A stretch of DNA of 64,000 bases from an uncultured Spirochaetia bacterium (GTDB lineage: Bacteria; Oederibacteriota; PGYV01; Palsa-1178): NCBI GenBank assembly GCA_964565765.1, contig CAZMGF010000008.1:4910-68909 (forward strand), in the 5' to 3' direction. Of this stretch, positions 32,929-62,417 are shown piece after piece; position 1 is the stretch's first letter, and each line of letters starts with the position of its first letter. The position numbers and the translations under genes were made by a program. The notes under the pieces were generated by a model. It was not told the origin of the DNA. It saw only the letters and a list, made by a program, of their open reading frames with translations, and did not search any database.

Positions 32929-32957
32929 GGGGCGCGGGAAACCGCGCCTTTTTCTTA
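32929..32957 (+). terminator. rho-independent terminator
   Basis: ggcgcgg-gaaa-ccgcgcc stem-loop followed by tttttctt. Confidence 0.7.
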
Positions 32958-32976
32958 TATAACCCCTGAAAAAAAC

Positions 32977-33025: not shown

Positions 33026-33051
33026 CCCTTACTAATGAAAAGGAGCCTGAT

Positions 33052-33513
33052 TTGGATAAAAAAAAGGAAGCAGAGGCCATATTCAACCACATAGTGGACA
33101 TAGTGCGCGCGGTCAGGTCAAATAAAAAGATAGAGATATTCCGCGGCGGAATGGAAAAACTTACTTTCGCGCAGATAGTCGCCTTATATTTTCTTTATGA
33201 TTCATCCGGCATGACAATGGGGGAACTATCAACATGCGCCAGCGTTAAAATGCCTACTATGACGGATATCATGTCAGCGCTTGTAACAGATGGTTATGCC
33301 GCAAGAAAACATTCCGAAAAAGACAGGCGCAAGGTAATTATGACCCTTACAGAAAAAGGAAAGAAGCTTGTTGAATATAACAGGGGCATCGGCATTGATT
33401 ATATTGAAAAGTTCATGTCCAATTTAAACCATGTGGAACGCGGGATAGCAAATGTGCTTGTGAAAAGGACAAAGGAAATCCTCACAAAAAGATTTGAGAA
33501 GGAGAAAAAATGA
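33052..33513 (+). CDS. MarR-family transcriptional regulator (second copy)
   Basis: ...FAQIVALYFLYDSSGMTMGELSTCASVKMPTMTDIMSALVTDGYAARKHSEKDRRKVIMTLTEKG... Confidence 0.85.
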   Translation: MDKKKEAEAIFNHIVDIVRAVRSNKKIEIFRGGMEKLTFAQIVALYFLYDSSGMTMGELSTCASVKMPTMTDIMSALVTDGYAARKHSEKDRRKVIMTLTEKGKKLVEYNRGIGIDYIEKFMSNLNHVERGIANVLVKRTKEILTKRFEKEKK

Positions 33514-34406: not shown

Positions 34407-34423
34407 GAGGAGCACTTTAAATC

Positions 34424-37400: not shown

Positions 37401-37537
37401 CAAAGACAATGCCGATTGCAGTAATAGGAGGGCTTCTTACATCCACATTCCTTACCCTGATTGTGATACCGGTTGTTTATGAGTGGGTTGAAAGAAGAAA
37501 AGTTAAAAAAGGCAAGGCTCTGAAATACAAAAAATAG
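34424..37537 (+). CDS. RND efflux transporter permease (second pump), 1037 aa
   Basis: Paralogous to 29772..32912 (SLSIGLLIDDSIVVRENIFRY, ISVPLAIIGAFLALLVTG). Confidence 0.9.
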   Translation: MNIAEMAIKRPIFVIMIVASIITLGLIGYTSMGVDMLPDIEYPTISVTTVYAGASAEEIENLVTKPLEDALAVVEGLDTLSSTSDESVSVITAKFNLGADVKYAETRVRDAVNKAKWKLPDDAKEPSVERFSAAEWIPVIAMTVKGNRDLAGLKEIVDDSIKPEIEKIKGVGRVDLWGGRDRAVKITINKSALFARMISFNQVIEAIDRENLNIPAGSIENTKRSIDVRVKGRFDSIPEIENVSMKAANGAIVRIKDIANVTFGLKDEERRTRVDGENGLIFGVYKQSGENSVEIARIVKSKMKDINAKLPPGIRFDVFRDPTHYVEQSIEGLQGDILIGALCAIIIVWLFLGSFRSTIITAIALPNSLLGAFFFINAAGFTINMMVLLALSLSIGLLIDDSIVVRENIFRYIEGGMDPKKAAVKGTNEVALAVIATTASIMAVFIPISFLHGVVGQFFKQFGFTIAFALTISLIDAFTTAPMLSAYWWKKEDSGKNTKGASSVFHAIHEKWEEIYEGIKEVYTQLLNWALDHKKSVIFGTLGLLAVSGLAVMFIGVAFMPDSDYSEIEYTIECRPDATIDVVDAKLKMVEAYLKTVPDIEEYYVVAGGEGSRGTASKNVGSIFARIKKGGRKSTPAGLEEYKKISAIIGKDALLILQDSGSGQVLSGGGDTFAITINITGDDIKVIDSIADSIKKEAEKTPGVADLDTSFRPGKPEISVKVDRLKASKLGLSTYEIGEILNMLINGKEIAQYRKGEKEYPIIMQLPENERQEINSLNDIMLTNSAGLKIPLSAVARFEFGSGPVEIKRENKKRIVKVTGNVREKYSLGDVVNALKKNIKQNVKIPYGYDYSFGGQASQLNDTITEMGTAMLLALLFMYMILASLYNSLVQPLILMISVPLAIIGAFLALLVTGQQLDLMAMIGILMVLGLVAKNGILLIDFTNQKIAQGMSAREALTHAGPIRLRPILMTTFAMIFGMLPLAFGFGESVIMAKTMPIAVIGGLLTSTFLTLIVIPVVYEWVERRKVKKGKALKYKK

Positions 37538-45033: not shown

Positions 45034-45049
45034 TAAATAATACAGGCAA

Positions 45050-45085
45050 AAAATGCCCGGCTGAAAAGCCGGGCATTTTTTTTGT
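45050..45085 (+). terminator. rho-independent terminator
   Basis: atgcccggc-tgaaaa-gccgggcat stem-loop followed by ttttttttg. Confidence 0.8.
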
Positions 45086-45233
45086 AAGACAAAAACTCAC
45101 AGAAACTTGATAGTAGAGAGGAGATTTCCTAGAAATAGGTGGATTTTTCATGTTTTTTGCATTAAAATTAAGGCATATGGCGCATTCAAACATTCATAAG
45201 GGAAATCTGAGAGCGTTTTACGCAGGGACAGCC

Positions 45234-47549
45234 ATGCTGATTATGTCTGTCCTTATATTTTTTTGCGCCCCGGCTTCCATATTTGCCGATGATACCGTAA
45301 AAAACGATATTTTAAGGTCTCCCGGCGCAAGGGCCGCGGGTATGGGCGGCGCTTTTACCGCAGTAGCCGACGATTACTCCGCATTTTTCTGGAATCCTGC
45401 CGGACTTGTTCTTGACAATCACATATCAGCCACCCTGCTCTATGATTCCATATTTACGAACAAAGAAAACAACGGCGGTTTTAATTACACCCTTCCGGTT
45501 TATGACAATTACACCGCGGCTTTTTCATATATAAAATCCACATATGATTCATCCGGCTATGAGGATGACACCCTATATTTTACCGGCGCGGCATGGCTTG
45601 ACGATGAAAAAAAATACGCCCTGGGCGGCAGCTTCAAGTTTATGAACACCAGCATTTCAAATTATAATGTCTACGGCAGGACCGGAAGCTTTGACCTGGG
45701 AGTAATGGTGTTTCCGGACATGCTGGAGAAAAAAATACGCTTTGGTTTTCTTGCGCAGGACCTGAACGCGGTTATGATGTGGAACAACGGCATCAATCAG
45801 AATATACCCTACCTTTTTAAAATGGGCTCAAGCTACACATTCGACCAGACGGCGGTTGTGGATATGGACATAAACCTGCTCCAGAGCGAAGCCAGCAGGT
45901 ATTACAGCAGAATGGGGCTCAATATAGGCGGAGAAAAATGGTTTATGAACAGGATTGTCGGCAACTTCGGTCTCAGGGCCGGATTTGCCTGGAGCGAGGC
46001 CTTTAATCCCGACTATAATTTTACCTTCGGCATGTCATACAGCAGGGAGGATTTTGAATTTGATTACACTTACGCCCCAGGAGTTGAAAGCCTGGGGGAA
46101 ACGCACAAGCTGAGTTTTACATACTATTTTGGTTCCAGGGAATCGCTTAAACAGGCGGAGCAGGTTACTTCAACGGCTCTGGAGACGGCGCAAAAATCCG
46201 TTACAATATCGGCTGCCGCTGATATGGCCCTTGTTGTGGAAAAATTCAAAAACATGGATATGTCAATTACTTCAAAATATTTTTCTCCGAATAATGACGG
46301 CGTTATGGACAGTGTTGATTATATTTTAAGAAACAACCCTCCTGACTCTAAAGGCATAGACTGGTCATTTACGGTTGCCAACTCCAAAGGAGAATCAATC
46401 AGGAATTTAAAGGGGACAGGCGCGCTGCCTGCTTTCTTTACCTGGCACGGCGACAACAACGACGGAATAACCCAGGCTGACGGGGATTATACCGCCACCC
46501 TTTCAGTGAATTACTCCGGCGCTGAAATATGGAAAAAATCAAGGGTGGTGACGCTCGATAACACCGCGCCGGCGTTTGATATGACGGTCTCGCCCAAGGT
46601 TTTTGCACCTTCAAAGAACAGCTCGGTCAAGGAGCTTTCAATCGACCTTAAGACAAAAGCCGAGGATATAAAATCCTGGCAGCTGGTAATTGTGGACGAC
46701 CAGAAACATTCAATCAGGAAAATGTCGGGCGACGGTTTTACCGCCAAGCTTTCATGGGGAGGCAAAGACGCGCTGGACAACCCAGTAAAGGACGGCAAGT
46801 ACTCCGCGGATATGACCATGTATGATTACGCGGGCAACAATTATTTTGTATCAGAGCCTTTCACCGTTGACACCAGGGTAGCTGAGATAAAGATAAAGGC
46901 GGATCCGAAAGCATTCGTTCCGGCAAAGGGAAAAACGTCATTTACGGTTGATTTCTCGGAGCCCCAGCTTGTAAAGTCATTTGATTTTGAGATACTGGGA
47001 GCGGATAAGAAACCGTTAAAAGTCTTTGCCGGCAGGACCGCGGCTTCAAAAAAGATTGTATGGGACACAGGCGGCGAAAAACCATCGCCGGTAAGGCAGG
47101 GGGCCGCGTTCACATACAGGGTAACAGTTCAGCAGAAGAACGGTATGAAAAACACGGAAGAAGGAATAATACAGACCGCGCTGCCTGAATTCAAGGACGC
47201 GGGTATTGAACTTACTCTGGCGGCCATTGATTTTGCCGCGGGAGATTCAACCGTGCCCGCTGACGAGAACAGCAGCTTAAACCAGGCCACTGAAGCGGTG
47301 AAAAAATACGCCAAAGAATATTATCTTTATGTAAAGGGATATTCCACCGATGCCGGAGGTCCGGATGCTGATATTAAATTATCAATCGCGCGCGCTGAAG
47401 CGGTCCGCGATTATCTGGTGGAGGCCGGCGTGCCGGAATCCAACATTTACGTGGCAGGTTACGGCGACTGCACCTATGGCGGAAACCTTTCAAAAGCAGA
47501 GCTTGCAAAGGCCGGAAAAAGGGTCGAAGTGGAACTGCTGACGAAGTAG
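45234..47549 (+). CDS. OmpA-family outer-membrane protein: FadL/PorV-like beta-barrel, FlgD-Ig-like domains, C-terminal OmpA domain (paralog of 7291..9255)
   Basis: Signal peptide MLIMSVLIFFCAPASIFA begins at ATG 45234 (SD aggga); the tracked start 45150 is upstream. AAGMGGAFTAVADDYSAFFWNPAGL barrel motif. FSPNNDGVMDSVDY (FlgD-Ig). C-terminal ...LYVKGYSTDAGG...LSIARAEAVRDYLVEAGV...RVEVEL (OmpA_C). Confidence 0.7.
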   Translation: MLIMSVLIFFCAPASIFADDTVKNDILRSPGARAAGMGGAFTAVADDYSAFFWNPAGLVLDNHISATLLYDSIFTNKENNGGFNYTLPVYDNYTAAFSYIKSTYDSSGYEDDTLYFTGAAWLDDEKKYALGGSFKFMNTSISNYNVYGRTGSFDLGVMVFPDMLEKKIRFGFLAQDLNAVMMWNNGINQNIPYLFKMGSSYTFDQTAVVDMDINLLQSEASRYYSRMGLNIGGEKWFMNRIVGNFGLRAGFAWSEAFNPDYNFTFGMSYSREDFEFDYTYAPGVESLGETHKLSFTYYFGSRESLKQAEQVTSTALETAQKSVTISAAADMALVVEKFKNMDMSITSKYFSPNNDGVMDSVDYILRNNPPDSKGIDWSFTVANSKGESIRNLKGTGALPAFFTWHGDNNDGITQADGDYTATLSVNYSGAEIWKKSRVVTLDNTAPAFDMTVSPKVFAPSKNSSVKELSIDLKTKAEDIKSWQLVIVDDQKHSIRKMSGDGFTAKLSWGGKDALDNPVKDGKYSADMTMYDYAGNNYFVSEPFTVDTRVAEIKIKADPKAFVPAKGKTSFTVDFSEPQLVKSFDFEILGADKKPLKVFAGRTAASKKIVWDTGGEKPSPVRQGAAFTYRVTVQQKNGMKNTEEGIIQTALPEFKDAGIELTLAAIDFAAGDSTVPADENSSLNQATEAVKKYAKEYYLYVKGYSTDAGGPDADIKLSIARAEAVRDYLVEAGVPESNIYVAGYGDCTYGGNLSKAELAKAGKRVEVELLTK

Positions 47550-49219: not shown

Positions 49220-51223
49220 ATGGACAAGTTCATGTTAAATACCAAATACAAGCCTGCCGGCGACCAGCCCGGCGCCATTGAAAAACTTGCCGGAAAAATA
49301 AAGACCGGCGAGAGATTCCAGACACTTCTCGGGGTCACCGGATCCGGAAAAACATTCACAATGGCAAAGGTGATTGAGAAATTAAACAGGCCGGCGATAG
49401 TTATATCACACAACAAGACGCTTGCCGCTCAGCTTTATATGGAGTTTAAGGAGTTTTTTCCTGAAAACGCCGTGGAATATTTTGTTTCATATTATGATTA
49501 TTACCAGCCGGAAGCATACATTCCACACAGGGACCTGTATATAGAAAAGGATTCCGCAATTAATGACGAACTTGAGAGGCTGCGCCTTTCGGCCACACAC
49601 AAGCTTTTAACGCGCAGGGATGTGGTCATTGTGGCCTCGGTTTCATGCATTTACGGCGTGGGGTCGCCGGAATACACAAAGCAGATGAGGCTTTACGCCG
49701 AGGCGGGGGACACGCTTTCAATCAATGAACTTTCGGCAAGGCTGACTTCGCTGCAGTATACGCGCAATGAATTTGAGTTCACACAGGGGATTTTCAGGGT
49801 AAAAGGGGACATTGTCGAGGTTTTCCCGGCATATTCCGTTACTGCCTTAAGGCTCGAATTTTTCGGCGACACCCTTGAAAAAATATCCGAAATAGACCCG
49901 GTTTCAAAAAACACCATCGCAGTTATGAAAAAAACAGCCATATACCCGGCAACGCACTATGTTATGCCGGAAGAGATGCTGAAAAAAGGGATAGAAAATA
50001 TAAAAGCCGAGCTTGAACTGAGGCTGAAGGAACTGGACGGAAAAACCGTTGAGTACGAAAGGCTGAAAACAAGGACAAATTACGACATCGAGATGCTTGA
50101 AGAAATGGGATACTGCAAGGGCATAGAGAATTACTCAAGGATAATGGAAGGCAGGAAACCCGGTTCTCCGCCGTATACCCTGCTTGATTACTTCCCCGAA
50201 GATTACCTGATGTTCATAGATGAATCACACGTCACCATACCGCAGTTCCACGGCATGTTCGCAGGGGATTATTCAAGAAAAAAAAACCTGGTGGACTACG
50301 GCTTCAGGCTGCCGGCGGCTTTTGACAACAGGCCTTTAAAATTTGAAGAATTTGAAAAAAAAATCCGGCAGGTTGTTTTTGTATCCGCAACGCCGGAAGA
50401 TTATGAACTTGAAAAAAGCGGAGTTGAAAACATTTCCGAGCAGATAGTCAGGCCCACAGGGCTGGTGGATCCTGAAATAACAATAAGAAAAACAGCCGGC
50501 CAGGTGGACGACCTGATGGCGGAGATAAAAAAGCGCGCTGAAATAAACGAGCGTGTTCTTGTCACGGTGCTTACAAAAAAAATGGCGGAATCACTGACGG
50601 AATTTCTTAAGGAACGCGGAGTCAAATGCCGCTACCTGCACTCGGACATCGACACCCTGGAGCGTATACAGATAATACGCGAACTGCGTGAGGGGAAATT
50701 TACAGCGCTCATCGGGATCAATCTTTTAAGGGAAGGGCTTGATATTCCCGAAGTATCCCTTGTGGCAATCCTGGATGCCGACAAGGAGGGGTTCTTAAGG
50801 TCGGAGACTTCCCTTATCCAGACCGTCGGCAGGGCAGCCAGGCATATTAATGGGAGGGTAATAATGTACGCTGATGTCATCACAGGCTCCATGAAAAGGG
50901 CCATAGATGAAACCGGCAGGCGCAGGGAAAAGCAGGTCAAATACAACAGGGAAAACAACATCACGCCGAAATCAATACAAAAAGAGATAAAGCAGATAAT
51001 GGGCTCGGTTTATGAGATGGACTATTTTACAGTGCCTCTATCCGGCGAGGAACAGGACTACCGCTATAAGGACGCCGCGGACCTTATACGCCAGCTTGAG
51101 GCGGACATGGTGAACGAGGCAAAGGCCCTTAATTTTGAAAAAGCCGCGAAGCTGCGCGACAAGATAGAGGATATTAAGGAAGGCGGCGTAAGAAAGCAGA
51201 AGAAAAAGAAGTATAAATTTTAG
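49220..51223 (+). CDS. uvrB: excinuclease ABC subunit B
   Basis: YKPAGDQPGAIEKL...QTLLGVTGSGKTFTMAKVIE..., helicase motifs, the beta-hairpin region, and the C-terminal UvrC-interaction domain. Confidence 0.95.
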   Translation: MDKFMLNTKYKPAGDQPGAIEKLAGKIKTGERFQTLLGVTGSGKTFTMAKVIEKLNRPAIVISHNKTLAAQLYMEFKEFFPENAVEYFVSYYDYYQPEAYIPHRDLYIEKDSAINDELERLRLSATHKLLTRRDVVIVASVSCIYGVGSPEYTKQMRLYAEAGDTLSINELSARLTSLQYTRNEFEFTQGIFRVKGDIVEVFPAYSVTALRLEFFGDTLEKISEIDPVSKNTIAVMKKTAIYPATHYVMPEEMLKKGIENIKAELELRLKELDGKTVEYERLKTRTNYDIEMLEEMGYCKGIENYSRIMEGRKPGSPPYTLLDYFPEDYLMFIDESHVTIPQFHGMFAGDYSRKKNLVDYGFRLPAAFDNRPLKFEEFEKKIRQVVFVSATPEDYELEKSGVENISEQIVRPTGLVDPEITIRKTAGQVDDLMAEIKKRAEINERVLVTVLTKKMAESLTEFLKERGVKCRYLHSDIDTLERIQIIRELREGKFTALIGINLLREGLDIPEVSLVAILDADKEGFLRSETSLIQTVGRAARHINGRVIMYADVITGSMKRAIDETGRRREKQVKYNRENNITPKSIQKEIKQIMGSVYEMDYFTVPLSGEEQDYRYKDAADLIRQLEADMVNEAKALNFEKAAKLRDKIEDIKEGGVRKQKKKKYKF

Positions 51224-51295
51224 GCAATTGTAAAGCCCCAATTAATAAGGTATAATTATTTTTTAAGGAAGAGACAACGCTGTAATAATGAAAAT

Positions 51296-51601
51296 ATGGA
51301 GGATATTATGAGCGCGCATACGGCATCAGGCGTACAAAAAAACGCCGCAATAAGGGAAAAAATGAAGTTTTCAGCCGGGCTGACTTCCATGGTCAACTCC
51401 TATGAAAAGAAAGCCATGCAGATAAAATGTTTTTTTAACGGCATTGAGACTTCAAAGGGCATAATGGGGCTCATGGTCGACCTGACAAATGTCAGGGATA
51501 TTTTCAACATCCGCATAGAAGTCACAGGAGCCGGCAGCCCGGAGCTCTGCGCCGTTGAGGCGGAAAAAGTCATGAAAGGGCTGGAAGAGTATTTCGCCTG
51601 A
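51296..51601 (+). CDS. small hypothetical protein (101 aa) between uvrB and uvrC
   Basis: Intact ORF with an ATG and the SD-like sequence aaaatatggaggat. No recognised motifs. Confidence 0.4.
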   Translation: MEDIMSAHTASGVQKNAAIREKMKFSAGLTSMVNSYEKKAMQIKCFFNGIETSKGIMGLMVDLTNVRDIFNIRIEVTGAGSPELCAVEAEKVMKGLEEYFA

Positions 51602-51641
51602 GAATTTTTATCAGTATGCAATTTAAGAGCAGGGAGAATTA

Positions 51642-53429
51642 ATGGATAAAGACAAGCTCTCCAGCCTTCCTGAAAAGCCGGGGGTTTATATTTACCGCGA
51701 CGGCGCCGGCAAAGTGATTTATATAGGCAAGGCAAAGGTCCTGAAAAACAGGGTCAGGTCCTATTTCGGGGAAGGAAAGAAGGACTTAAAGACAGAGCAG
51801 CTTTCTTCCCGCGTGGCGGATATAGATTTTATTGTTACAGGCAATGAACTTGAAGCTTTTATACTTGAAAACAACCTCATCAAGGAACACAAACCAAAAT
51901 ACAACATCCTGCTTAAGGACGACAAGTCTTATCCGTATATAATGCTTTCAATAAACGATGTTTATCCCGGAGTTTATATAACACGCGACACCAAAGACAG
52001 GTCAAAAATATACTTCGGGCCCTATTTTTCGGCTGACGCGAAAAAAGTGGCCGCACTGATTTACAGGATATTTAAAATAAGGCAGTGCACCCTCGACCTT
52101 TCCGGAAAACCGCCCGGGAGGCCATGTATATATTATGACACGGGTTTGTGTACGGCGCCATGTGTGAGGCTAATTGGCGCCGGAGAATATATGTCCGCGG
52201 CGCTCAAGGTCAAAGATTTTCTCTCCGGGGAATACGCGCCGGTAATTGCCCTGCTGCAGGGCGATATGGAAAGGTTATCGGCGGAAAAAAAATATGAAAA
52301 AGCCGCTGAAATCAGGGACGATATAAAATCTGTCGGGGAAATAATGAAGGAACAGAAAATGGTGATACAGGGGGAAAAGAACATGGATGTGGCCGGATAT
52401 ATTTACAGGAACGGAGCCTATTATTTTGGCGTCTTTAACATAAGGCGCGGCAGGCTCACCGGCAAAACAATCAATATTTTCAGGGAGATGCCCTTAAACG
52501 AAAACCCCCTTGAAATTTATCTTTCGCAGTATTATTCCAGGAACACATTAATGGCGGACGAGGTTATACTCCCATCCGGCGCGGTGGACGAGGAGATAAT
52601 ACAAAGGTATGTTTTCAAGGGCAAAAAAATAACAGTGACTTTTGAGGAACCGGGCGGGAAGCTCCTCGGGATGGTTGAAGAAAATCTCAGGGAAAAGGCG
52701 TCATCCGAGGAAAAATTTGAGAAGAAAAAAATGGATGTTAAGGGCGAATACCTGGCGCAGATGCAGGCGCTGAAGGAATCGCTGAACCTTGAATACATGC
52801 CCGAATGCGTGGAAGGCATCGACATTTCACACTCTTCGGGGGATAATATGGTCGGGTCGCTTGTGGTCTTTAAAAACGGCGAACCCGATAAAAAGAATTA
52901 CAGGCACTTTAACATCAAGACCGTGGGGCAGATAGACGATTATGCCTCAATAGACGAGGTTGTTGAAAGGCGCTATTCAAGGCTGAAGGCGGAAGGTGAA
53001 TATTTTCCCGATTTAATACTAATTGACGGCGGCACAGGCCAGGTAAACGCGGCAAAAGAGGCCCTGAACAGGGTAGGCGTGGATATTCTGCTCCTCGGGC
53101 TGGCAAAGGAGCGGGAAGAAGTATTCAAACCCGGAGGCGGAGAGCCCGTGGCTGTAAGCGAAAAGGGCAGGTTCCTGTTGATGAGGGTGCGCGATGAGGC
53201 CCACAGGTTCGCCAATTCATTCAGGAAAAAACTGGCAAACAGGGATCTTAAGGAGTCGATTTTTGATTCCATAAAGGGTGTCGGTGAAAAAACAAAATAC
53301 AGGATATACAATGAGTTTAAGGATTTTGAGGAGCTTGCCTCGGCAATAGAAAGCGGCGATGAAAGGGCCTCGTTCCTCGGAAAAAAACAGAGGGAATCGG
53401 TATTAAAGACAATTAAAGAAAGGAAATGA
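51642..53429 (+). CDS. uvrC: excinuclease ABC subunit C
   Basis: N-terminal GIY-YIG (PGVYIYRDGAGKVIYIGKAKVLKNRVRSYF), a UvrB-binding region, and C-terminal RNase H-like and HhH domains. Confidence 0.95.
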   Translation: MDKDKLSSLPEKPGVYIYRDGAGKVIYIGKAKVLKNRVRSYFGEGKKDLKTEQLSSRVADIDFIVTGNELEAFILENNLIKEHKPKYNILLKDDKSYPYIMLSINDVYPGVYITRDTKDRSKIYFGPYFSADAKKVAALIYRIFKIRQCTLDLSGKPPGRPCIYYDTGLCTAPCVRLIGAGEYMSAALKVKDFLSGEYAPVIALLQGDMERLSAEKKYEKAAEIRDDIKSVGEIMKEQKMVIQGEKNMDVAGYIYRNGAYYFGVFNIRRGRLTGKTINIFREMPLNENPLEIYLSQYYSRNTLMADEVILPSGAVDEEIIQRYVFKGKKITVTFEEPGGKLLGMVEENLREKASSEEKFEKKKMDVKGEYLAQMQALKESLNLEYMPECVEGIDISHSSGDNMVGSLVVFKNGEPDKKNYRHFNIKTVGQIDDYASIDEVVERRYSRLKAEGEYFPDLILIDGGTGQVNAAKEALNRVGVDILLLGLAKEREEVFKPGGGEPVAVSEKGRFLLMRVRDEAHRFANSFRKKLANRDLKESIFDSIKGVGEKTKYRIYNEFKDFEELASAIESGDERASFLGKKQRESVLKTIKERK

Positions 53430-53439: not shown

Positions 53440-54834
53440 ATGATAATTAAAACCATCAGGTCAAAAGTAGTGCTCTATTTTCTTGGAGCGTCCGCGCTTG
53501 TAATAGGGCTGTATGGCTTCATGACCTATGAGCTGCTCCGGGGGAACCTTGAATCCGAAATGGAAAACAGGCTCACCACCGCCGGAAAAATAATAGCGCA
53601 GGCAATTGACCCTGCGGATGTGAAATATATCGGGCTTAAGGGGAAAATATACCTTTCATACAGGGAGAAATTAAGGAAATTGAGGGAGATAACGGAAGTA
53701 CGGGATATTTTTATCCTTGGAGGGGACAGAAAAGTGCTGTTATCTTCCCTTGATGAAAATGAGAAGTTTTATATTAATCTGGACAGCTTCGAAATTGAAA
53801 AGGCTTTCAGGGGAGAGACTTCATCTTCACCGCTTTATCAGGGGGCGGGAAAGCTTTATTATAAGACCGGGTATGTTCCTGTCGGCAGCGCCGGAACGAT
53901 CGCGTGCGTTGTGGGAGTTGAGGCAAGCGTCAAATATACCAGATATTTAAGCCAGTACGGCTCTACGCTGGGGACAATGGGAATTATCAGCCTGGCCCTT
54001 GCCCTTGTGATGTCGATGCTGATTACCGGAGGAATTGCCTCAAGGATAAATCTGCTCAGGAAAAAGGCTGAAGAAATCGCCAGAAGGAATTTCTCGGAAA
54101 ATATAACCGTTGAGGGTGAGGAGGAAATATCGCTGCTTGCGGCAACGCTCGATTCCATGAAAAAAGAGCTGAAGGAGTATATAGAAGACCGGGAAAAAAT
54201 GGCGTCAGTCGGGGAATTCTCCGCGGGGGTGGCCCATGAAATAAGAAATTCCCTGGGCGCCATATCAGGATACGCCGAACTTATAAGGGAAAGGGAAAAA
54301 GACGAAAAAACAAAAAAATTCGCCGGGGATATTGTCTATAACTGCATGAAGATGAGCGAGTTTCTCAATAATTTTCTGACATACACAAAGGAATTTACTC
54401 CGGAATTTTCTCTTGTTAAAACGGCGGAATTGATAAGCGAAACAATTTCCGAGCTGCCTGAAGCGGCCGGAAAAGTTATAATTGACAGGTTTTCCGGTTC
54501 GGAGGCTTCGGCAAAATGCGACCCTTACCTTATAAAAAAGGCGCTTTATAATATAATAATAAACGGATATCAGGCGCTGGATAAACCGGATGGAAAGGTT
54601 GAGATATTTTTGACAGCCGAGGGAGACAGAAGCGTAATTGTAATAAAGGACAACGGGGCCGGCATGGGGCCGGAAGAGCTCTCCAGGATATTTCAGCCGT
54701 TTGTTACCGGAAAAAAAGAAGGCACCGGGCTGGGTCTGGCCATAGTTTATCGTATAATAAAAGAAATACATAAAGGCGAGATATACGCCGCAAGCGAGGC
54801 CGGCAAAGGGTCGGAATTCGCGGTAAAAATATGA
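53440..54834 (+). CDS. sensor histidine kinase (two TM helices, periplasmic sensor domain, HisKA, HATPase_c)
   Basis: TM1 at aa 10-30, a ~150-aa periplasmic domain, then TM2. H-box SVGEFSAGVAHEIRNSLGAI. N/G boxes ...NGYQAL...DNGAGM...GTGLGLAIV. Confidence 0.85.
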   Translation: MIIKTIRSKVVLYFLGASALVIGLYGFMTYELLRGNLESEMENRLTTAGKIIAQAIDPADVKYIGLKGKIYLSYREKLRKLREITEVRDIFILGGDRKVLLSSLDENEKFYINLDSFEIEKAFRGETSSSPLYQGAGKLYYKTGYVPVGSAGTIACVVGVEASVKYTRYLSQYGSTLGTMGIISLALALVMSMLITGGIASRINLLRKKAEEIARRNFSENITVEGEEEISLLAATLDSMKKELKEYIEDREKMASVGEFSAGVAHEIRNSLGAISGYAELIREREKDEKTKKFAGDIVYNCMKMSEFLNNFLTYTKEFTPEFSLVKTAELISETISELPEAAGKVIIDRFSGSEASAKCDPYLIKKALYNIIINGYQALDKPDGKVEIFLTAEGDRSVIVIKDNGAGMGPEELSRIFQPFVTGKKEGTGLGLAIVYRIIKEIHKGEIYAASEAGKGSEFAVKI

Positions 54835-54849: not shown

Positions 54850-56175
54850 ATGAGGGATATATTAATTGTCGAGGATAATGACGGCTTGAGGGAGGTTCTT
54901 AAAGAGGCCCTTTCAACCCCGGAAAACACCGCAGAGACGTCTGAAACAGCCGAAGAAGCACTTGAAAAGATAAAGCAACAGACATTTGATATGGTGATAA
55001 CCGACCTGAAACTTCCCGAAGCGGACGGAATGTCAGTGCTTGAAGCCGTAAAAAAGATTTCGCCTGAAACGGAAGTGATAGTAATCACAGCGCACGGGAC
55101 CGTTGACAGGGCCGTTGAGGCCATGAAAAAAGGGGCGGCGGATTTTATCACAAAACCCTTTTCAATAGAGCAGATAAGGATGCAGGTGGCAAGGATACTC
55201 GGCGCCAGAAATCTGAAGGAAGAGAACATTTATTTAAAATCAGTAATGGAGCGCAGGATAATAGGTTCCGGCGGCAGATTAAAAAGCGTTATGGAAACCG
55301 CTTCAAGGGCCGCCGACAAGGACGCCACCGTGCTTATCACCGGGGAATCAGGAACCGGAAAAGAACTTATAGCGGAAGAGATACACAGGCGGTCAAAGAG
55401 AAATAATTTTCAGATGGTAAAAGTTAACTGCGCGGCGCTATCCCCCGGGCTGCTTGAATCGGAACTTTTCGGCCATGAAAAAGGTGCGTTTACGGATGCT
55501 TATACACAAAAAAAGGGGCGCTTTGAACTTGCCGACAGGGGGACAATATTCCTTGATGAAATAGCGGAATTGCCGCAGCCGCTGCAGGTAAAAATACTCC
55601 GCGTTATACAGGAACGTGAGTTTGAGCGCGTTGGCGGCGAAAAGACCATAAAAACGGACGTACGTATAATAGCCGCCACCAACAGGGACCTGAAAGCCAT
55701 GGTAAAGGAAGGGGCTTTCAGGCAGGAGCTTTACTACAGGCTGAATGTGGTGGAAATAAATATGCCCCCGCTGCGCGAGAGGAAGGAAGATATACCGGAG
55801 CTTGTGGAATATTTCATAAAAAAATACGCGGAATACGACAATTACAGGGTGAAAGGCATAACCAAAGAGGCGCAGGACGCGCTTTTGTTCTACGATTATC
55901 CAGGCAACATAAGGGAACTTGAAAACATAATACAGCGTGTGCTTGTATTGTGCGGCGGCGATATGATAAACGACGGGGACATTCCTTATGAGCTTAAAGC
56001 CGGAAAACCCGCTGAATCCGGAAAAGACGGGCTGGAGGCGAAAGTCGCTTCATTTGAAAAAAATATGATCCAGAAAGCCCTGGATGAAACGAAAGGCAAC
56101 AAGGCAAAGGCCGCCGAACTGCTCAGTGTGAACAGGGTCACCCTGCTGGCAAAAATAAAAAAATACGGGCTTTAA
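54850..56175 (+). CDS. sigma-54-dependent response regulator (NtrC family bEBP: receiver, AAA+ domain, Fis-type HTH)
   Basis: Receiver ...FDMVITDLKLPEADG. Walker A VLITGESGTGKE. GAFTDA loop (variant of GAFTGA). C-terminal HTH KAKAAELLSVNRVTLLAKIKKYGL. Confidence 0.9.
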   Translation: MRDILIVEDNDGLREVLKEALSTPENTAETSETAEEALEKIKQQTFDMVITDLKLPEADGMSVLEAVKKISPETEVIVITAHGTVDRAVEAMKKGAADFITKPFSIEQIRMQVARILGARNLKEENIYLKSVMERRIIGSGGRLKSVMETASRAADKDATVLITGESGTGKELIAEEIHRRSKRNNFQMVKVNCAALSPGLLESELFGHEKGAFTDAYTQKKGRFELADRGTIFLDEIAELPQPLQVKILRVIQEREFERVGGEKTIKTDVRIIAATNRDLKAMVKEGAFRQELYYRLNVVEINMPPLRERKEDIPELVEYFIKKYAEYDNYRVKGITKEAQDALLFYDYPGNIRELENIIQRVLVLCGGDMINDGDIPYELKAGKPAESGKDGLEAKVASFEKNMIQKALDETKGNKAKAAELLSVNRVTLLAKIKKYGL

Positions 56176-56192: not shown

Positions 56193-56918
56193 ATGAAAAA
56201 AATGGCACTGGTTTTATCCGCATCGCTTATCACTCTTTTTCCCGCGCTTTATGCCGGGGAAAATCCCGGATTTGAGGCAAAAGCCAGGGAGTATTCCGCA
56301 CAGCTGGAAAAAAAGCAGTCGGAGTATCTGAGGGTAAAATCCCGTTATGAGCAGATGTTGAGGCGTTTAAATGAACTCAAGGAGCGAACCAAGAAAAATC
56401 CTGTGGCCTCTTTTATTAATTCCATGAAGATGGACTATTACCTTAAAGCGGGTAACAGCGCGGGGTATAAAATTTACGTGCTCAACAGGCAGATCAAGGA
56501 ACTTTCGGGTGAGTGCTTTACTTATGATTCCCTTGTTGCCGGTGACCTTACGAAAAAATTCCAGGATTGTATTGAAAATAAATGCGGGGAGGCGCAGCGG
56601 ATATATGACGAAAGGGAAAAGTGGACCGCCATGGCGCTCGGGACCGGAGAGGCCCTTGTATTTGATATTGATGTAAAGGGCATGCTTGAAGGGATGAGTC
56701 CGGAGGCAAAAGAGGACCTAAGGCAATACCTGAAAAAGAAAATGGTGCAGATAGAAGAAAGAATATATATGCTCAGGGAAGAAAAAGAGATAAATACCGC
56801 CGCCGGGAAAAACGGCATAAAAACAGCATCCGAAACGGTTAAAAAATCAGGGGAAGAAATGGCAAAGTTTTTGAGGATGGAAAAAGAGGCGAAAAACATA
56901 CTGGCTTCTATTAAATAA
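56193..56918 (+). CDS. secreted hypothetical protein (signal peptide, coiled-coil-rich), co-transcribed with the HK/RR pair
   Basis: MKKMALVLSASLITLFPALYAG signal peptide. Starts 17 nt after the RR stop. Confidence 0.55.
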   Translation: MKKMALVLSASLITLFPALYAGENPGFEAKAREYSAQLEKKQSEYLRVKSRYEQMLRRLNELKERTKKNPVASFINSMKMDYYLKAGNSAGYKIYVLNRQIKELSGECFTYDSLVAGDLTKKFQDCIENKCGEAQRIYDEREKWTAMALGTGEALVFDIDVKGMLEGMSPEAKEDLRQYLKKKMVQIEERIYMLREEKEINTAAGKNGIKTASETVKKSGEEMAKFLRMEKEAKNILASIK

Positions 56919-56920
56919 GG

Positions 56921-56955
56921 ACAGCCCTGCCAGCATCGCAGGGCTGTCGTAATTC
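56921..56955 (+). terminator. stem-loop ACAGCCCTGC-N7-GCAGGGCTGT: operon terminator and/or bEBP upstream activating sequence
   Basis: Perfect 10-bp inverted repeat 2 nt after the stop of 56193..56918. The 3' flank is only weakly U-rich. It lies ~105 bp upstream of the sigma-54 -24 element. Confidence 0.5.
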
Positions 56956-57038
56956 ATTCACCGCTGTACGTTTTTATACTATAAAATCCCGGATTGTAAA
57001 ACCACCCCGTTATTAGCCATATTTATATGGGCATATGC

Positions 57039-57054
57039 TGGCACGGCTATTGCT
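57039..57054 (+). promoter_or_regulatory. sigma-54 (RpoN) -24/-12 promoter
   Basis: TGGCACGGCTATTGCT matches YTGGCACGrNNNTTGCW exactly, including GG-N10-GC spacing. It sits 38 nt upstream of the ATG at 57092 (SD aaaggagaa). Confidence 0.8.
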
Positions 57055-57091
57055 TACTATAATGATGTAGAAAGCAAAAAGGAGAATTTAT

Positions 57092-57463
57092 ATGAGGCTG
57101 AAATTGATATCAATAGATGAAAAACAGCTGAAAGATTACTTGGTGCTTGTCCAGAAAATAAAGAGCATTCCGCCCGATAAAACCTCTGATATGGCCGGAA
57201 AAATATCAAGAATAAGGGGAAGGGCCGGAAAGAACGCCATTTACCGCAGTCTTATAGAATCCAATTTAAAGAATGTGGTTCATGTGGCCTCGAAATACAG
57301 GGGGGCCGGAGTGACATTTGCCGCTCTTATTGCCGCCGGCAACAGGGCATTGATAGCGGGCATAAAGGGATTTGAACCTGAAAAAGGCGAAAATTTTAGC
57401 GAAGCCATAAACTGGCAGATCGAAGGCGCGGTAATGGACTGTGTTGTTGAGGCTAAAAAATAG
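57092..57463 (+). CDS. 123-aa protein homologous to sigma-70 regions 1.2-2.2 only (truncated sigma / putative sigma mimic)
   Basis: LIESNLKNVVHVASKYRGAGVTFAALIAAGNRALIAGIKGFEPEKGENFSEAINWQIEGAV aligns with sigma-70 [61 protein letters not shown]. The upstream IPPDKTSDMAGKI resembles region 1.2 (LTREGEIDIAKRI). The protein stops after region 2.2, with no regions 2.3/2.4/3/4. Confidence 0.6.
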   Translation: MRLKLISIDEKQLKDYLVLVQKIKSIPPDKTSDMAGKISRIRGRAGKNAIYRSLIESNLKNVVHVASKYRGAGVTFAALIAAGNRALIAGIKGFEPEKGENFSEAINWQIEGAVMDCVVEAKK

Positions 57464-57506
57464 GCCGGCCGCATGGCCGGCATTTGAAAAACAGGAGATG
57501 GTAAAA

Positions 57507-59252
57507 ATGAAAAAAAGAATTATTTCGGCGCTCATACTGATGCTGGCAGTGGCGGCTTTTAGTTATTCTGCAACAGGAACAGCGGTTATAAGCCCTGCTT
57601 ATCTCGCGCCGTCAGCATACCGTCCTACTATCACCATAACTTATAAAACCGCCGGCGTTACAATGGTTGCGGGCGCGGTGGAGTTGCAGATAAATTCAGC
57701 CTTTCCGCTTCCAACCACAGTAACCACAAGCGCCGGCGCTATAACAGCGGTCATAATGATTAACGGAACCACCCCCACTGACGTGCCGCAGTCTGATATA
57801 ACCATTAACGGATATACCGTTACGATAAATTCATTAAACATACAGCCGGTTGATTCACTGATTATAACCTACACCGGGGCAGGAACAGGCGAATTTGTCG
57901 GGCCGGCGGCAACCGGCGCGTATCCTTTTAATGTATCCGAGGAAATTTCATCAACCGACCTTAATTTTACAGGCCTTGGTTCCCAGCCGGTTATTTATGT
58001 CACAAATATGGTAATTACCAAAACAACAGAAAGCAGCCTTATAGAGGCGGGCAATACAGTTACATATGTAATTTCGTATCAAAGCAATGAAGCGAATATG
58101 AATTCTGTTTCAATAACGGACTCAATGCCTCAGGGGCTTTTGATACAAAGCGCGCAGCCGTCTTCGAGCAGTTATAGCGGCAATATATATACATGGAACA
58201 TTGGAAGCGTTGCTACAGCAGGCAGTTTGTCAAGCATCACAATAACGGCTGTGGCGCAAGCCGGGATTGCGGCATACGGCTTTACCTCGACCAATTACGC
58301 CACTATTTCAGCCAACAGCAGCATAACAGGATCAAATGGAATGGCTGTTTCAAGCACAGTAAACGTCAGCGGAGCGGTTCTTACATCTTCAATTACAGCT
58401 TCACCCGATTCTGTTGTATCAGGCGGGCAGATTACTGTTGTCATGAATGTAAGCAATTCCGGAAACTATGGGGCGTCAAGCGTCGCTCCATCGACACTTT
58501 CATTATCCGGCACCACAGTGGCGACATTGCTAAGCGGACCCGTACCTTCATCTGTTTCAGGTATTGAACCCAACGCATCGGCTTCTTTTACGTGGATATA
58601 TACGGCAAATAATCCTGGAATGACAAATTTTACGGGTTACTCCAGGGGATATGACAACGGGCAAGTATTGTCTTCAGGAACCGCTGTTAGCGGCAATATT
58701 TCGGTATTAAACCCGACCCCGACATTTACATTCACCTTAACAAGCACACCCACTCCGCAGAATACAAATACTTCAACCGGAACATTTACACCTGTGCCGC
58801 CGACGGACACGCCGACCCCTCAATATACAAACACTCCCGCTGTCACAAATACACCGGCAGTTACCGATACACCGGCGGGGACCGCGACCACGGTTCCGGG
58901 CCAGACAAGTTCTCCGACAGCGGTTTCAACGGCCCCGCTTACAACGCCGACGCAGGTTCCAACAATTACTGTAAAAGCCGTAACCGACAGAAATTATATT
59001 AATCTCAGCAACGGCGACAGGGCCGCTATTATTTACAAAGTTGAAAGCGACGGCGACAGCTGGATAGATATATATAATCTCAGCGGCGAGCTTGTAAAGC
59101 ATTATGTAAGAGAGCCGCTTGCCGCCGGACAGCATACAGTTTACTGGGACGGATCAAACGATGACGGCAAAAAAGTCGGGCAGGGAATGTATTTTATAGT
59201 AATACACCAGCCGGGCGGGGTAACAACAAAGAAACTTATTGTAATAAAATAG
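57507..59252 (+). CDS. secreted DUF11-repeat surface protein with long TP linker and T9SS-type C-terminal sorting domain
   Basis: SD aggag 9 nt before ATG 57507 (signal peptide MKKRIISALILMLAVAAFS; tracked start 57441 is upstream). DUF11-like ITKTTESSLIEAGNTVTYVISYQSN. Linker TPTPQNTNTSTGTFTPVPPTDTPTPQYTNTPAVTNTPAVTDTP. CTD ...IYNLSGELVKHYVRE...VYWDGSNDDGKKVGQGMYFIVIHQ...KKLIVIK. Confidence 0.7.
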   Translation: MKKRIISALILMLAVAAFSYSATGTAVISPAYLAPSAYRPTITITYKTAGVTMVAGAVELQINSAFPLPTTVTTSAGAITAVIMINGTTPTDVPQSDITINGYTVTINSLNIQPVDSLIITYTGAGTGEFVGPAATGAYPFNVSEEISSTDLNFTGLGSQPVIYVTNMVITKTTESSLIEAGNTVTYVISYQSNEANMNSVSITDSMPQGLLIQSAQPSSSSYSGNIYTWNIGSVATAGSLSSITITAVAQAGIAAYGFTSTNYATISANSSITGSNGMAVSSTVNVSGAVLTSSITASPDSVVSGGQITVVMNVSNSGNYGASSVAPSTLSLSGTTVATLLSGPVPSSVSGIEPNASASFTWIYTANNPGMTNFTGYSRGYDNGQVLSSGTAVSGNISVLNPTPTFTFTLTSTPTPQNTNTSTGTFTPVPPTDTPTPQYTNTPAVTNTPAVTDTPAGTATTVPGQTSSPTAVSTAPLTTPTQVPTITVKAVTDRNYINLSNGDRAAIIYKVESDGDSWIDIYNLSGELVKHYVREPLAAGQHTVYWDGSNDDGKKVGQGMYFIVIHQPGGVTTKKLIVIK

Positions 59253-59606: not shown

Positions 59607-62417
59607 ATGGGGAAAATATTATCGAACTTAAGTCGGGCAGCTGCCATTTTTATCTTCCTGTTTGTCGCTACGGCTGCCATAACAGCATTTACAAACCCCG
59701 GATTTGAAACCGGGACACTGGCTGGCTGGACAACAAATATATCCTACGGCGCAAATGTTGTATACGACCCGAATGTAACAATCCAGACTCACGGCGCGGC
59801 ATGGCACACACAGGGCACTATTTGCGCCGCTCCTTTAATCTGCCTTGATATGGTTCATACCGGAACCTACGCCGCAATGCTGGATTCCGGAAGGGGTGAT
59901 AATCCGGTCAGGGATTACGCACAGATACAGCAGGCAGATATAGTACCGTCGAACGGGAATTCATGCCTCTCTTTCTGGTTCGCCGCGGTTTTATCCGGCT
60001 ATCATTATCTTGACTGGCTAAATAACAACAACGGCTCGCCGAATGACGACGCTTATGTTGTGGTTGATGTGCTTATAAACGGTGCGGTAGTCGCGAGCCA
60101 GCGTTTCAATTATTTTACAATGCTTAATCAGCTTGTTGACGATGGGGCTGATCCTGCTGGAGGCCCGGAACCGGTGGTGAGCGGAGCGGGAAATTTGAAT
60201 GTATGGAAACACCTGCCATGGACGCAGTTTTATATCAATCTTGCCGCGTACGCCGGCCAGCAGGCCACTGTAAGGTTTACCGCCTATTCATGCGACCAGA
60301 GCGGCCACAGCTGCATAGGCTATCTTGATGATGTAAGCTGGTCCGCATGCCCGGTTGTAAATATGAACCTGGCAAAAACAAACAGCCCTACCGGAACGGT
60401 CCACAATGGCGGGACAATAACATACACCCTGGCCTATTCATTGACCGGGACGGCGGGTGTACTGGGTGTAAACATTTATGATACATTTCCGTCAGGCACA
60501 ACATACGTAAACAATTCGGCTGGAAGCACGCCTTTTTATCCGGTTGTAAACGTTACCGCAGCGGGCATTAACTGGAACCTTGGATACCTGGCCCCCGATT
60601 CTTCAGGGACGCTGACTTTTAAAGTAAAGGTCAACACTTCGTGCACCGGGGTAAGCAATACCGCCTCTGAAACGGATCTGGAGACGGACGGGATAATATC
60701 AAATACTGTTTATAACTGGATAGACGGCTGCACGCCGACATTTACGGTTACAAGGACATATACCCCCACCTCCACTCCTACCGCAACAAAAACAGTTACA
60801 AAAACAATAACAGCAACCTTTACACAGACATATACACCAACCGCGACGCCGACTTTTACATTTACCGACACTTACACACCGACATATACGCAGACATACA
60901 CACCAACGGCCACACCAACTTTTACATGCACCAGGACATTTACGCCTACTTTTACACAAACATTCACACCGACCGCGACCCCCACTTTTACCTATACAAA
61001 TTCCGATACTCCTACAAGGACCGTTACAGCAACAAATACGCTGACAATTTCCAAAACAATAACTCCAACCCTTACAGCAACGCCGACAGACACGCCGACT
61101 TTTACTGCAACACCCACTTACACATATACATTGACATTTACTCCGACATTTACAGGAACATTCACTTCAACATTCACATCAACTTACACGGCAACGCCGA
61201 CTTTTACCCAGACCTATACAGCGACGTATACGCTTACCGCAACCCCGACTTTTACATCCACAAAGACTTCAACTATGACCTTCACAAGAACGTCCACGCC
61301 GTCTTTTTCGCCGACCGCCACCGCAACCCCCACAAGCACAAATACCGATACGTCGACGTTTACTTTCACCAGGACATACACTTTCACATTTACTACGACT
61401 TTTACGCCTACAATAACAGACACATTTACAGCGACACCTGTAAAGACAACCACAACCGGATACCTTGTAACGGTAAAAATTTACAATGAAGCCGGAGAGG
61501 TTGTAAGGACAATAATCCAGTCGCAGACAACTTATCTGCTTACAGGAATTATTACAAGTGTAAATGGAAACACCGGAGCCAATATCTTTTCAACCGGGGA
61601 AGTTTTTACAGTGACTTTACCGGGAGCGGGGCCGGGCGGCGCGGACATGACAACGTCATGGGACGGTAAAACAGACGCCGGCCAGCCTGCGGCATCCGGC
61701 ACCTACTACCTTGCGGTGGATGAAACAGACACATACGGTCATGTGACTGATATAACAAAAACCATTACCCTGATCCAGGATTCCACCTACATTCAGCTCA
61801 ATATATTTAACAGCGCCGGCGAACTGGTGAGGAAAATTACAGATTATAATTTTATCTTCCCGCCTGATTTTTTATCCGGCACTGCCGCGCTGGGGGTAAT
61901 TATGAATGTTCCGGCCGTTATAACAACCAAGGAGGCCAATTTATCGCCGGTTCAGGTAATGTTCGGATCACAAACCGGGGACTTCATGCTGTGGGACGGC
62001 AAGAACAATAGCGGTATTTCAGTGAGCAGCGGAGTATATGAAATGCAGATTGTGGTAAAAACAGAGTCCCTGCTCGCCGTAGTGGCTTCCAAGAGCGTCA
62101 CCGTACTTGAAAACAATGATGTTTTTATAGGTGAAATAAAGGCACTGCCAAATCCATATATGGGTTCCGGCAACGGTATAGAATTCAGATGGACGTCCAA
62201 TGAAACCGGCAATATGAGCATAACCATTTTTAACATGTCAGGCGAGCTTATACGGATCCTTAACACAAAACTTGAGAACGGCTCGATGAAATGGGACACG
62301 GCAACAGCATCAGGCAATCTGGTTTCAAACGGGCTCTATATAGCGGTACTTCAGGGAATATCCGGCGGTGGAAACATAGCAAGATTAAAGGTAAAAGTCG
62401 CGATAAACAGAAGATAG
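59607..62417 (+). CDS. large secreted adhesin-like protein: N-terminal beta-sandwich/DUF11 region, ~245-aa Thr/Pro/Phe/Tyr tandem-repeat linker, three FlgD-Ig-like domains, the last a T9SS-type CTD
   Basis: Signal peptide. [28 protein letters not shown] (DUF11-like). The repeat region spans [20 protein letters not shown]...[13 protein letters not shown]. Ig domains [13 protein letters not shown]...[18 protein letters not shown]; [13 protein letters not shown]...[18 protein letters not shown]; [14 protein letters not shown]...[10 protein letters not shown]...RLKVKVAI. Confidence 0.7.
60730..61465 (+). repeat. intragenic low-complexity tandem repeat encoding (T-x-T-P/F/Y-T)n linker; the unit [12 protein letters not shown] recurs about 3 times nearly identically
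   Basis: The DNA-level near-repeat acatatacaccaaccgcgacgccgacttttaca recurs at about 60826, 60889 and 60952. Spurious ORFs appear on both strands across this region. Confidence 0.8.

Follow-up and report, generated by a model that had tools for sequence, protein, structure and literature searches.

Two-component systems of the NtrC family, such as NtrBC acting on glnAp2, ZraSR on zraP and AtoSC on atoDAEB, pair a sensor kinase with an activator composed of receiver, AAA+ and Fis-type helix-turn-helix (HTH) domains, and their target promoters are of the -24/-12 type and have tandem sites at about 90-115 bp upstream of the transcription start, with an AT-rich region in between. These components recur in a stretch of 64,000 nucleotides (the window) from contig CAZMGF010000008.1 of GenBank assembly GCA_964565765.1, deposited as an uncultured Spirochaetia bacterium. 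Here a -24/-12 element, TGGCACGGCTATTGCT, lies between an operon encoding such a kinase and activator and the gene for a stand-alone sigma-2-domain protein of 123 amino acids (the mini-sigma). In all probability the motif is a genuine sigma-54 promoter, accompanied by candidate activator-binding boxes of its own upstream and conserved across the uncultured phylum Goldbacteria/FCPU426. We further consider it likely that positions 56944-57068 constitute, in a genome of Candidatus Goldiibacteriota (Goldbacteria/FCPU426), a complete sigma-54-dependent regulatory region, in which the adjacent activator acts on two TGT boxes and thereby drives the mini-sigma and a surface protein encoded behind it.

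The system falls in no curated equivalog family, and it differs from the described ones in three respects. The target is a truncated sigma factor, the gene for a surface protein sorted by the type IX secretion system (T9SS) lies in the same unit, and the activator has the variant sigma-54 contact loop GAFTDA instead of GAFTGA. As in ZraSR/ZraP, a small secreted helical protein forms part of the system, but here its gene belongs to the activator operon and is not the target. The PrsK/PrsR system of the PEP-CTERM box offers a common concept, namely a sigma-54 two-component system beside genes for C-terminally sorted proteins; however, the activator in the window scores 408 bits against TIGR02915, below the cut-off of 502.6, the sorting signal is of T9SS type A rather than PEP-CTERM, and no exosortase was seen. 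The NifA-type upstream activator sequence is TGT-N10-ACA, and the likeness to it is confined to the spacing of the half-sites: the second box in the window reads TGT-N10-ACT and precedes the predicted start by about 90 bp, two boxes stand in direct register 20-21 bp apart, and NifA is a GAF-domain protein whereas the activator here is a receiver-domain protein. In the Hk2-Rrp2-RpoN-RpoS cascade of Borrelia burgdorferi, surface proteins are under the control of a sigma-70-family gene that is itself transcribed from a sigma-54 promoter (PMC2940757, PMC4014564, PMC3037356). The locus in the window shares with this cascade the two-component NtrC-type activator, the sigma-54 promoter, a sigma-70-family product and a predicted surface-protein output. 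In contrast, RpoS is a complete sigma factor and the product here comprises a sigma-2 domain only, the surface protein is encoded in the same presumed transcription unit, and conserved upstream boxes exist.

The -24/-12 element and the conserved region around it

The region contains the following elements, whose positions relative to the start are approximate.

56944-56962, + strand: box 1, CTGTCGTAATTCATTCACC, candidate activator site centered at about -112, from an alignment of 15 loci in 11 lineages
56964-56981, + strand: box 2, CTGTACGTTTTTATACTA, of the form TGT-N10-ACT, candidate activator site centered at about -92
56986-57003, + strand: third element, ATCCCGGATTGTAAAACC, seen in the alignment, degenerate in the window and centered at about -70
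57017-57030, + strand: AT-rich tract, CCATATTTATATGG, centered at about -41
57039-57054, + strand: sigma-54 -24/-12 element, TGGCACGGCTATTGCT, recognized by consensus match, uniqueness and conservation
57058-57063, + strand: TATAAT, either AT-rich DNA at which the sigma-54 promoter melts or a -10 box of the sigma-70 type that overlaps it

The -24/-12 element had been proposed in an initial annotation of the window as a consensus promoter with GG-N10-GC spacing and as the only such match on either strand. Both observations hold. It matches TGGCACG-N4-TTGCW on the + strand without a single mismatch, its GG (57040-57041) and GC (57052-57053) being separated by 10 nucleotides, and the base composition predicts 0.0098 occurrences of this pattern per 64 kb, counting both strands. 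The shorter pattern TGGCAC-N5-TTGC has one perfect match on the two strands of the window; when one mismatch is allowed, five sites are found against 4.6 expected, which is the level of chance. Of 15 sites in the window that keep the GG and GC and have at most three mismatches, the element is the sole intergenic one, and this search produced no further intergenic candidate for a sigma-54 promoter. It is situated in the 173-bp gap between the open reading frames (ORFs) at 56193-56918 and 57092-57463, and points toward the mini-sigma gene at a plausible leader distance. Its placement upstream of this gene stands as first described, with the distance to the ATG at 57092 amended from 38 to 37 nucleotides, and an AAGGAGA Shine-Dalgarno sequence occupies 57079-57085. 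With the GC taken as -13/-12, transcription is predicted to start near 57065. The TATAAT lies 4 nucleotides past the -12 element and has TAtaAT-like counterparts in most lineages of the alignment. An Rfam scan of 56700-57600 returned sub-threshold chance matches only, so that neither spacer nor leader has a known RNA element, and inspection of the conserved spacer by eye yielded no convincing match to the integration host factor site WATCAA-N4-TTR.

Using the protein family of the mini-sigma, 30 related loci (designated L001, L002 and so on) were fetched, from which we obtained a usable set of 15 distinct sequences grouped into 11 lineages. The loci come from metagenome-assembled genomes (MAGs) labelled candidate division FCPU426, which belongs to the same phylum as Goldbacteria (PMC7031533). 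A hypothetical protein from a Candidatus Goldiibacteriota MAG has the same sequence (100% identity) as the secreted protein encoded by the last gene of the activator operon, and contigs from the same strain as the window, in JGI, ENA and NCBI (GCA_050012975.1), are 99.99-100% identical to it. The pattern GGCA[CT]-N5-[TA]TGC[TA], with GG-N10-GC spacing, is present at the orthologous place in every locus with enough upstream DNA, as would be anticipated if the sigma-54 promoter of the initial annotation is genuine. Across the 11 lineages the adjacent mini-sigma ranges from 93% down to 40% identity to that of the window, and the remaining spacer is otherwise unalignable among the 15 sequences.

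When the 140 bp that end with the promoter were aligned by MAFFT, five blocks emerged as conserved, their order and spacing being constant. The first two have the consensus CTGTCaaaA..c...CA.C and, 20-21 bp on, cTGTc.a.a.t...A; these are followed by aTTtC.c.t..tGAAAC, by an AT-rich tract with flanking C and G, and by GGCA.Gg..aTTGCT..aTa. A DNA profile made from the alignment matches each locus exactly once, with no second copy in the window or in the related loci. As an unbiased control the profile was rebuilt without the clade of the window and then without the two next-closest clades. Each of these profiles has a single match in the window, with E-values of 1e-18, 2e-14 and finally 2.3e-10, and the strictest covers 56944-57068. 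Given that profiles from distant lineages still single out this region, a chance match is, on the comparative evidence, excluded, and the length of the functional unit comes to about 125 bp.

Within this unit the two boxes are 20 bp apart in the window, and all 11 lineages keep the TGT of box 2 without change. In L023 (CTGTCAGGATTCTGACAG) and L024 (AGTGTAGAGATTTCTACACT) box 2 is a perfect TGT-N10-ACA dyad. For CTGTM-N15-16-CTGTM, 0.25 occurrences in the window are expected and two are found, the second of them intragenic. Upstream activator sites are looked for at about 80-150 bp from the start; the two conserved boxes, at about -112 and -92, appear to be better enhancer candidates than the palindrome that the initial annotation had favored. 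The first five nucleotides of box 1 are the last five of that palindrome, and it is there that the leave-clade-out profile match starts. The third element is a clear inverted repeat in L003, L007 and L009, of the form TTTCA-N5-TGAAA or GTTTC-N7-GAAAC, and in the window, L010 and L025 the AT-rich tract forms a palindrome. It is possible that these two elements serve as a bend or as a site for an architectural protein between enhancer and promoter.

The adjacent two-component system

The operon directly upstream comprises three genes.

53440-54834, + strand: sensor histidine kinase with two transmembrane segments, a periplasmic domain of about 145 amino acids, and HAMP, HisKA and HATPase_c domains (Pfam)
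54850-56175, + strand: NtrC-type bacterial enhancer-binding protein with receiver, AAA+ sigma-54 interaction domain and Fis-type HTH
56193-56918, + strand: secreted protein of 241 amino acids, all-helical, the last gene of the kinase/activator operon

Both the Pfam matches and the translations agree with the initial description of this operon as encoding a sensor kinase, an NtrC-type enhancer-binding protein and a secreted protein. The kinase is closest to the NCBIfam models AtoS and ZraS, below their equivalog cut-offs, and its orthologs are syntenic and 60-84% identical. The activator matches Sigma54_activat (8e-72), Response_reg (2e-28) and HTH_8 (1e-13); its domains PF00072, PF00158, PF25601 (AAA-lid) and PF02954 all score far above the cut-offs. 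Among curated models the activator comes closest to AtoC, NtrC, the PEP-CTERM-box regulator and ZraR, without attaining the equivalog score of any. Its contact loop, GAFTDA rather than GAFTGA, is found as G[AS]FTDA in all orthologs. The HTH recognition helix, NRVTLLAKIKK, is invariant in the orthologs apart from an A-to-S change in L010. As the orthologs are only 65-84% identical overall, the constancy of this helix accords with its recognizing a DNA motif that is itself invariant.

The 241-residue protein has a signal-peptide-like N-terminus and syntenic counterparts in the relatives at 33-87% identity. It has no sequence match in Pfam, NCBIfam or PDB; its AlphaFold2 model is all-alpha, with a mean predicted local distance difference test (pLDDT) score of 74, and has no structural neighbor at E <0.3. 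A role like that of CpxP, ZraP or Spy may be considered, though only as an analogy.

Genes for the kinase, the activator and the 241-residue protein lie directly upstream of the promoter in all of the loci L001-L021 with enough flanking DNA. L023 retains the gene for the 241-residue protein, and a glycosidase gene takes this place in L024. The presence of the operon directly upstream in all Goldbacteria/FCPU426-type loci, with the G[AS]FTDA loop and the HTH helix kept, upholds its earlier designation as encoding the probable activator. A Pfam scan of the large ORFs of the window found no other enhancer-binding protein.

Some further features of the neighborhood were also observed. The genes uvrB and uvrC occupy 49220-53429 of the window, the kinase gene starting 10 nucleotides past the uvrC stop codon; this adjacency is kept in the relatives, and together with the short gap it suggests that the activator operon may be co-transcribed with uvrC. 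In two loci (L008:3066-4900 and L010:4772-6795) the activator is called as two ORFs, with an extra ORF of 159-188 amino acids between kinase and activator, which could represent a frameshift, an assembly error or a real disruption. In one lineage (L008:5630-7465 and L013:5616-7451) a gene for a protein of 611 amino acids without a family match is found between the gene for the secreted protein, there of 240 amino acids, and the promoter region.

The mini-sigma and the surface proteins

Downstream of the promoter the window contains the following features.

57092-57463, + strand: stand-alone sigma-2-domain protein of 123 amino acids, corresponding to regions 1.2 to about 2.4 of group 1-3 sigma factors
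57464-57481, + strand: hairpin GCCGGCCGCATGGCCGGC, GC-only, -16.4 kcal/mol, directly past the mini-sigma stop codon and inside the presumed operon
57507-59252, + strand: secreted surface protein of 581 amino acids with DUF11/CLIPPER, CARDB and FlgD_ig domains and a T9SS type A sorting domain
59607-62417, + strand: second surface protein, of 936 amino acids, with DUF11/CLIPPER, FlgD_ig and T9SS sorting domains (Pfam, NCBIfam)

On its own the mini-sigma matches Pfam Sigma70_r2 at an E-value of 1.6e-4, which is below the cut-off, and a profile of its family matches the solved sigma-2 domains of SigA, RpoD and RpoS at about 2e-16, corresponding to residues 190-270, approximately, of Taq SigA. The AlphaFold2 model (pLDDT 84.7) has five helices, and the top Foldseek matches to it are exclusively sigma-2 domains, with a TM-score of about 0.7. 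The family comprises 19 clusters at 90% identity, all of 123-129 amino acids; among 1.84 billion representative proteins about 17 members were recovered, of 120-134 amino acids, and ordinary sigma factors score far lower. The protein ends within region 2.4, with regions 3 and 4 absent and nothing in it corresponding to a sigma-4 domain, the part that recognizes -35 and binds the flap. In a comparison by eye with Escherichia coli sigma-70, guided by the profile alignment, the positions which we take to be equivalent to the core-binding D403, Q406 and E407 of region 2.2 are alanine. By the same comparison the presumed equivalent of W433 is invariant in the family, and the residues which we take to recognize -10/-12 are not kept. 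The closest relative outside the family is P0022 (141 bits), a protein of 386 amino acids with three tandem sigma-2-like domains. The multi-domain matches P0033, P0037 and P0039 were set aside, having the appearance of ordinary sigma factors duplicated in assembly.

In L007, L008, L010, L013 and L023-L026 an HTH-like ORF of 59-60 amino acids is found between the promoter and the mini-sigma gene, at the following places.

L007:7820-7999: HTH-like ORF
L008:7820-7999: HTH-like ORF, with a shorter start
L010:7817-7999: HTH-like ORF
L013:7820-7999: HTH-like ORF
L023:1000-1179: HTH-like ORF
L024:2816-2998: HTH-like ORF

Its consensus is ..SKEEAA.YMKVSLPTFNKFLK.HP.., and it matches HTH_17 weakly, with E-values of 0.002-0.03. 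With this weak match and no match among PDB sequences, a relationship to sigma-4 could not be shown. The ORF is absent from the window, L001, L003, L005 and L009, and the leader of L005 and, less clearly, the GAAAGCAAAAAGGAG of the window look like remnants of its 3' end. In Bacillus subtilis SigO-RsoA is a two-subunit sigma factor (cited in PMC7826278; PMC2795558). The two cases would have in common a division of sigma functions among small proteins with neighboring genes, the HTH-like ORF directly preceding the sigma-2-only gene in the relatives; they differ in that the window and its close relatives lack the ORF, and in that it resembles HTH_17 weakly rather than sigma region 4. We tentatively suggest, as one possibility that we would hold to be less probable than its opposite, that the mini-sigma might act on RNA polymerase, either as one half of a split sigma together with the small HTH protein or as a mimic that competes with sigma-70-type factors. 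This would amount to a cascade from kinase to sigma-54 to sigma fragment, coupled to a T9SS adhesin.

The surface proteins score 25.5 bits (57507-59252) and 26.3 bits (59607-62417) at their C-termini against TIGR04183, which has a cut-off of 23. DUF11 is now named CLIPPER, an isopeptide-bond domain (PMC12617251). Wherever a locus extends far enough downstream, the mini-sigma is followed by a DUF11/FlgD-Ig protein of the 581-residue type, across gaps of 18-65 nucleotides, so that the conserved unit consists of the mini-sigma and this first surface protein, whose genes are probably co-transcribed. The place of the 936-residue protein in the regulon is uncertain: a gap of 354 bp with sigma-70-like promoter candidates precedes it, and in the relatives it is replaced or set apart by other genes. 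Hence, of the regulon that the initial annotation had outlined, the mini-sigma and the first adhesin, which are always linked to the promoter, can be retained, and the second adhesin, which is not consistently adjacent, becomes doubtful.

The hairpin behind the mini-sigma gene is strain-specific, being absent in L011, L001 and L003, and could possibly function as a partial terminator or an operon-internal processing site. Its minus-strand sequence would make a good terminator, but no minus-strand gene ends there. In several lineages the mini-sigma gene is followed by a gene for a protein of about 250-305 amino acids without a Pfam or PDB match, which is missing from the clade of the window.

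L005:8397-9155: gene for the protein of about 250-305 amino acids
L007:8392-9159: the same
L010:8435-9235: the same
L013:8393-9172: the same
L024:3401-4318: the same

Elsewhere in the window, further FlgD_ig surface proteins are encoded at 21834-24554 and 45150-47549, one with DUF11 and one with OmpA, without a copy of the sigma-54 promoter. The region 26114-37537 contains two consecutive RND efflux sets, with a gene for an outer-membrane factor at 26114-27751 and AcrB-family pumps at 29772-32912 and 34424-37537.

Alternative readings and the proposed circuit

The initial annotation had assigned to the palindrome behind the activator operon the double function of terminator and upstream activating site, and had described it as perfect with 10-bp arms.

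56920-56948, + strand: palindrome GACAGCCCTGC-N7-GCAGGGCTGTC, with 11-bp arms at 56920-56930 and 56938-56948

The palindrome is real, with arms of 11 rather than 10 bp around a 7-nucleotide loop. Its center lies 106 bp upstream of the GG, at the classical distance of an enhancer; it is a perfect dyad, the preferred form for HTH_8 dimers; and its outer ends, GACAG...CTGTC, are an inverted pair of the conserved CTGTC, of which the right one starts box 1. All this would suit an enhancer bound by the activator, but conservation begins at 56944, as does the leave-clade-out alignment, and not at 56920, leaving CTGTC (56944-56948) as the sole conserved part. In the closest relatives, L011/L012, with a mini-sigma 93% identical to that of the window, the left arm is different, the stem is not conserved and the best hairpin reaches -9.9 kcal/mol; L001 and L014 have no hairpin at this position; and other lineages have unrelated ones. 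Thus, L005 has canonical terminators of unrelated sequence in this place, L007 a long hairpin of CGGAGTT/AACTCCG heptamer repeats at the same intergenic position (L007:7583-7655), and L003 a near-perfect inverted repeat of about 190 nucleotides (L003:7655-7845; -108 kcal/mol) between the gene for a 242-residue protein and the conserved promoter region. The last of these also occurs in L004 and, partly N-masked, in L017, and resembles a miniature inverted-repeat element. The palindrome of the window has a GC-rich stem beginning 2 nucleotides past the TAA stop codon (56916-56918), as is typical of elements acting at the RNA level, and folds at -23.4 kcal/mol (z -4.1). Of the window's 49 gene ends, 5 have hairpins of -15 kcal/mol or below. 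The tail of the palindrome, GTAATTCATT, has 3 T in 8 nucleotides and falls short of the U-tract of an intrinsic terminator. Canonical bidirectional terminators with stems between A-runs and T-runs, as in AAAAGCAAAAGGCCCCGG-N4-CCGGGGCCTTTTGCTTTT, are present at 1410-1449, 24572-24614 and 45048-45081; hence this genome uses U-tract terminators, from which the hairpin at 56920 differs. Because it is not conserved, folds strongly and abuts a stop codon, the palindrome is best read as a strain-specific RNA hairpin that ends the activator operon, as terminator or as 3'-end stabilizer. The terminator part of the earlier proposal thereby survives in modified form and the activating-site part does not, an enhancer function for the palindrome as a whole being improbable.

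Transcription might instead start wholly or mainly from the perfect TATAAT in a sigma-70-type manner, with the GG-N10-GC motif modulating it as a binding site or being one of two overlapping promoters. The hexamer is located 4 nucleotides past the -12 element, has TAtaAT-like counterparts at the same place in most lineages and is perfect in L007, L009 and L024. Against this stand the absence of an acceptable -35 at 16-18 nucleotides (where the sequence is ATGCTG), the failure of a promoter scan to report the TATAAT, and the fact that the invariant positions are the sigma-54-specific GG and TGC and not the hexamer. AT-rich DNA downstream of the -12 element is moreover usual in sigma-54 promoters, where it aids melting. 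We therefore regard this explanation as rather unlikely. Still more so is one in which the promoter depends on sigma-54 and an enhancer-binding protein encoded elsewhere activates it, with the adjacent two-component system controlling other genes. Adjacency is guilt by association, and in L024 the promoter, the HTH-like ORF, the mini-sigma and the surface-protein unit are found downstream of the glycosidase gene without an activator gene within 3 kb. The linkage of promoter and activator is for this reason strong and not absolute, and adjacency is not obligatory. Yet it has been kept in at least nine lineages despite turnover of intergenic sequence and accessory genes, the recognition helix and the TGT boxes are both invariant, and the adjacent activator is the sole enhancer-binding protein found in the window. 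A chance occurrence of the motif without promoter function, to which the singleness of the site and the lack of a visible rpoN might point, is on the sequence evidence effectively refuted by the low expectation per window, by retention at the orthologous position in 11 lineages and by the enhancer-binding protein gene next door.

Several observations nevertheless weigh against a sigma-54-dependent region served by the adjacent activator. In addition to the promoter of L024, which has the same architecture with no activator gene nearby, the GAFTDA loop is a variant one. The sigma-54 regulome of Desulfovibrio vulgaris lists GAFTDA among the variants expected to be active, and DVU2106, which has this loop, is assigned a sigma-54 regulon (PMC4641369); for VfmH of Dickeya, with the same substitution, no sigma-54 interaction was detected and activity is unproven (PMC10714721). 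No rpoN was found by Pfam among the large ORFs of the window, nor an RpoN-box peptide when 337 kb of DNA from related loci were translated in six frames. In the window, moreover, the palindromic character of boxes 1 and 2 is only weak, and the TATAAT at 57058-57063 could give sigma-54-independent transcription. On balance, the sigma-54 reading and the assignment of the neighboring activator appear well supported, because of the conservation and the synteny.

Under the sigma-54 reading, the membrane kinase (53440-54834) would respond to a signal from the periplasm or envelope, perhaps with the participation of the secreted 241-residue protein, and phosphorylate the NtrC-type activator (54850-56175). 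The activator would then assemble on the TGT boxes at 56944-56962 and 56964-56981 (about -112 and -92), 20 bp apart, and the dyad at about -70 and the AT-rich tract at about -41 may let it reach a sigma-54 holoenzyme waiting in a closed complex on TGGCACG-N4-TTGCT (57039-57054). ATP hydrolysis would open the promoter, with a predicted start near 57065, and the transcript would encode the sigma-2-domain protein (57092-57463) and the T9SS-sorted CLIPPER/FlgD-Ig protein (57507-59252). The hairpin at 56920-56948 would insulate the activator operon from this unit.

The promoter type itself teaches nothing new, being an ordinary kind of switch, and the enhancer assignment is corrected here from the eye-catching palindrome to the TGT boxes. 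What emerges is a concrete and testable regulatory circuit for Goldbacteria/FCPU426, a phylum known from metagenomes and sorted cells only, with its sensor, activator, candidate boxes, promoter and output genes defined to the base. The unusual part is the target: the stand-alone sigma-2 protein, probably co-transcribed with a secreted isopeptide-domain surface protein, could prove to be a new RNA-polymerase accessory factor.

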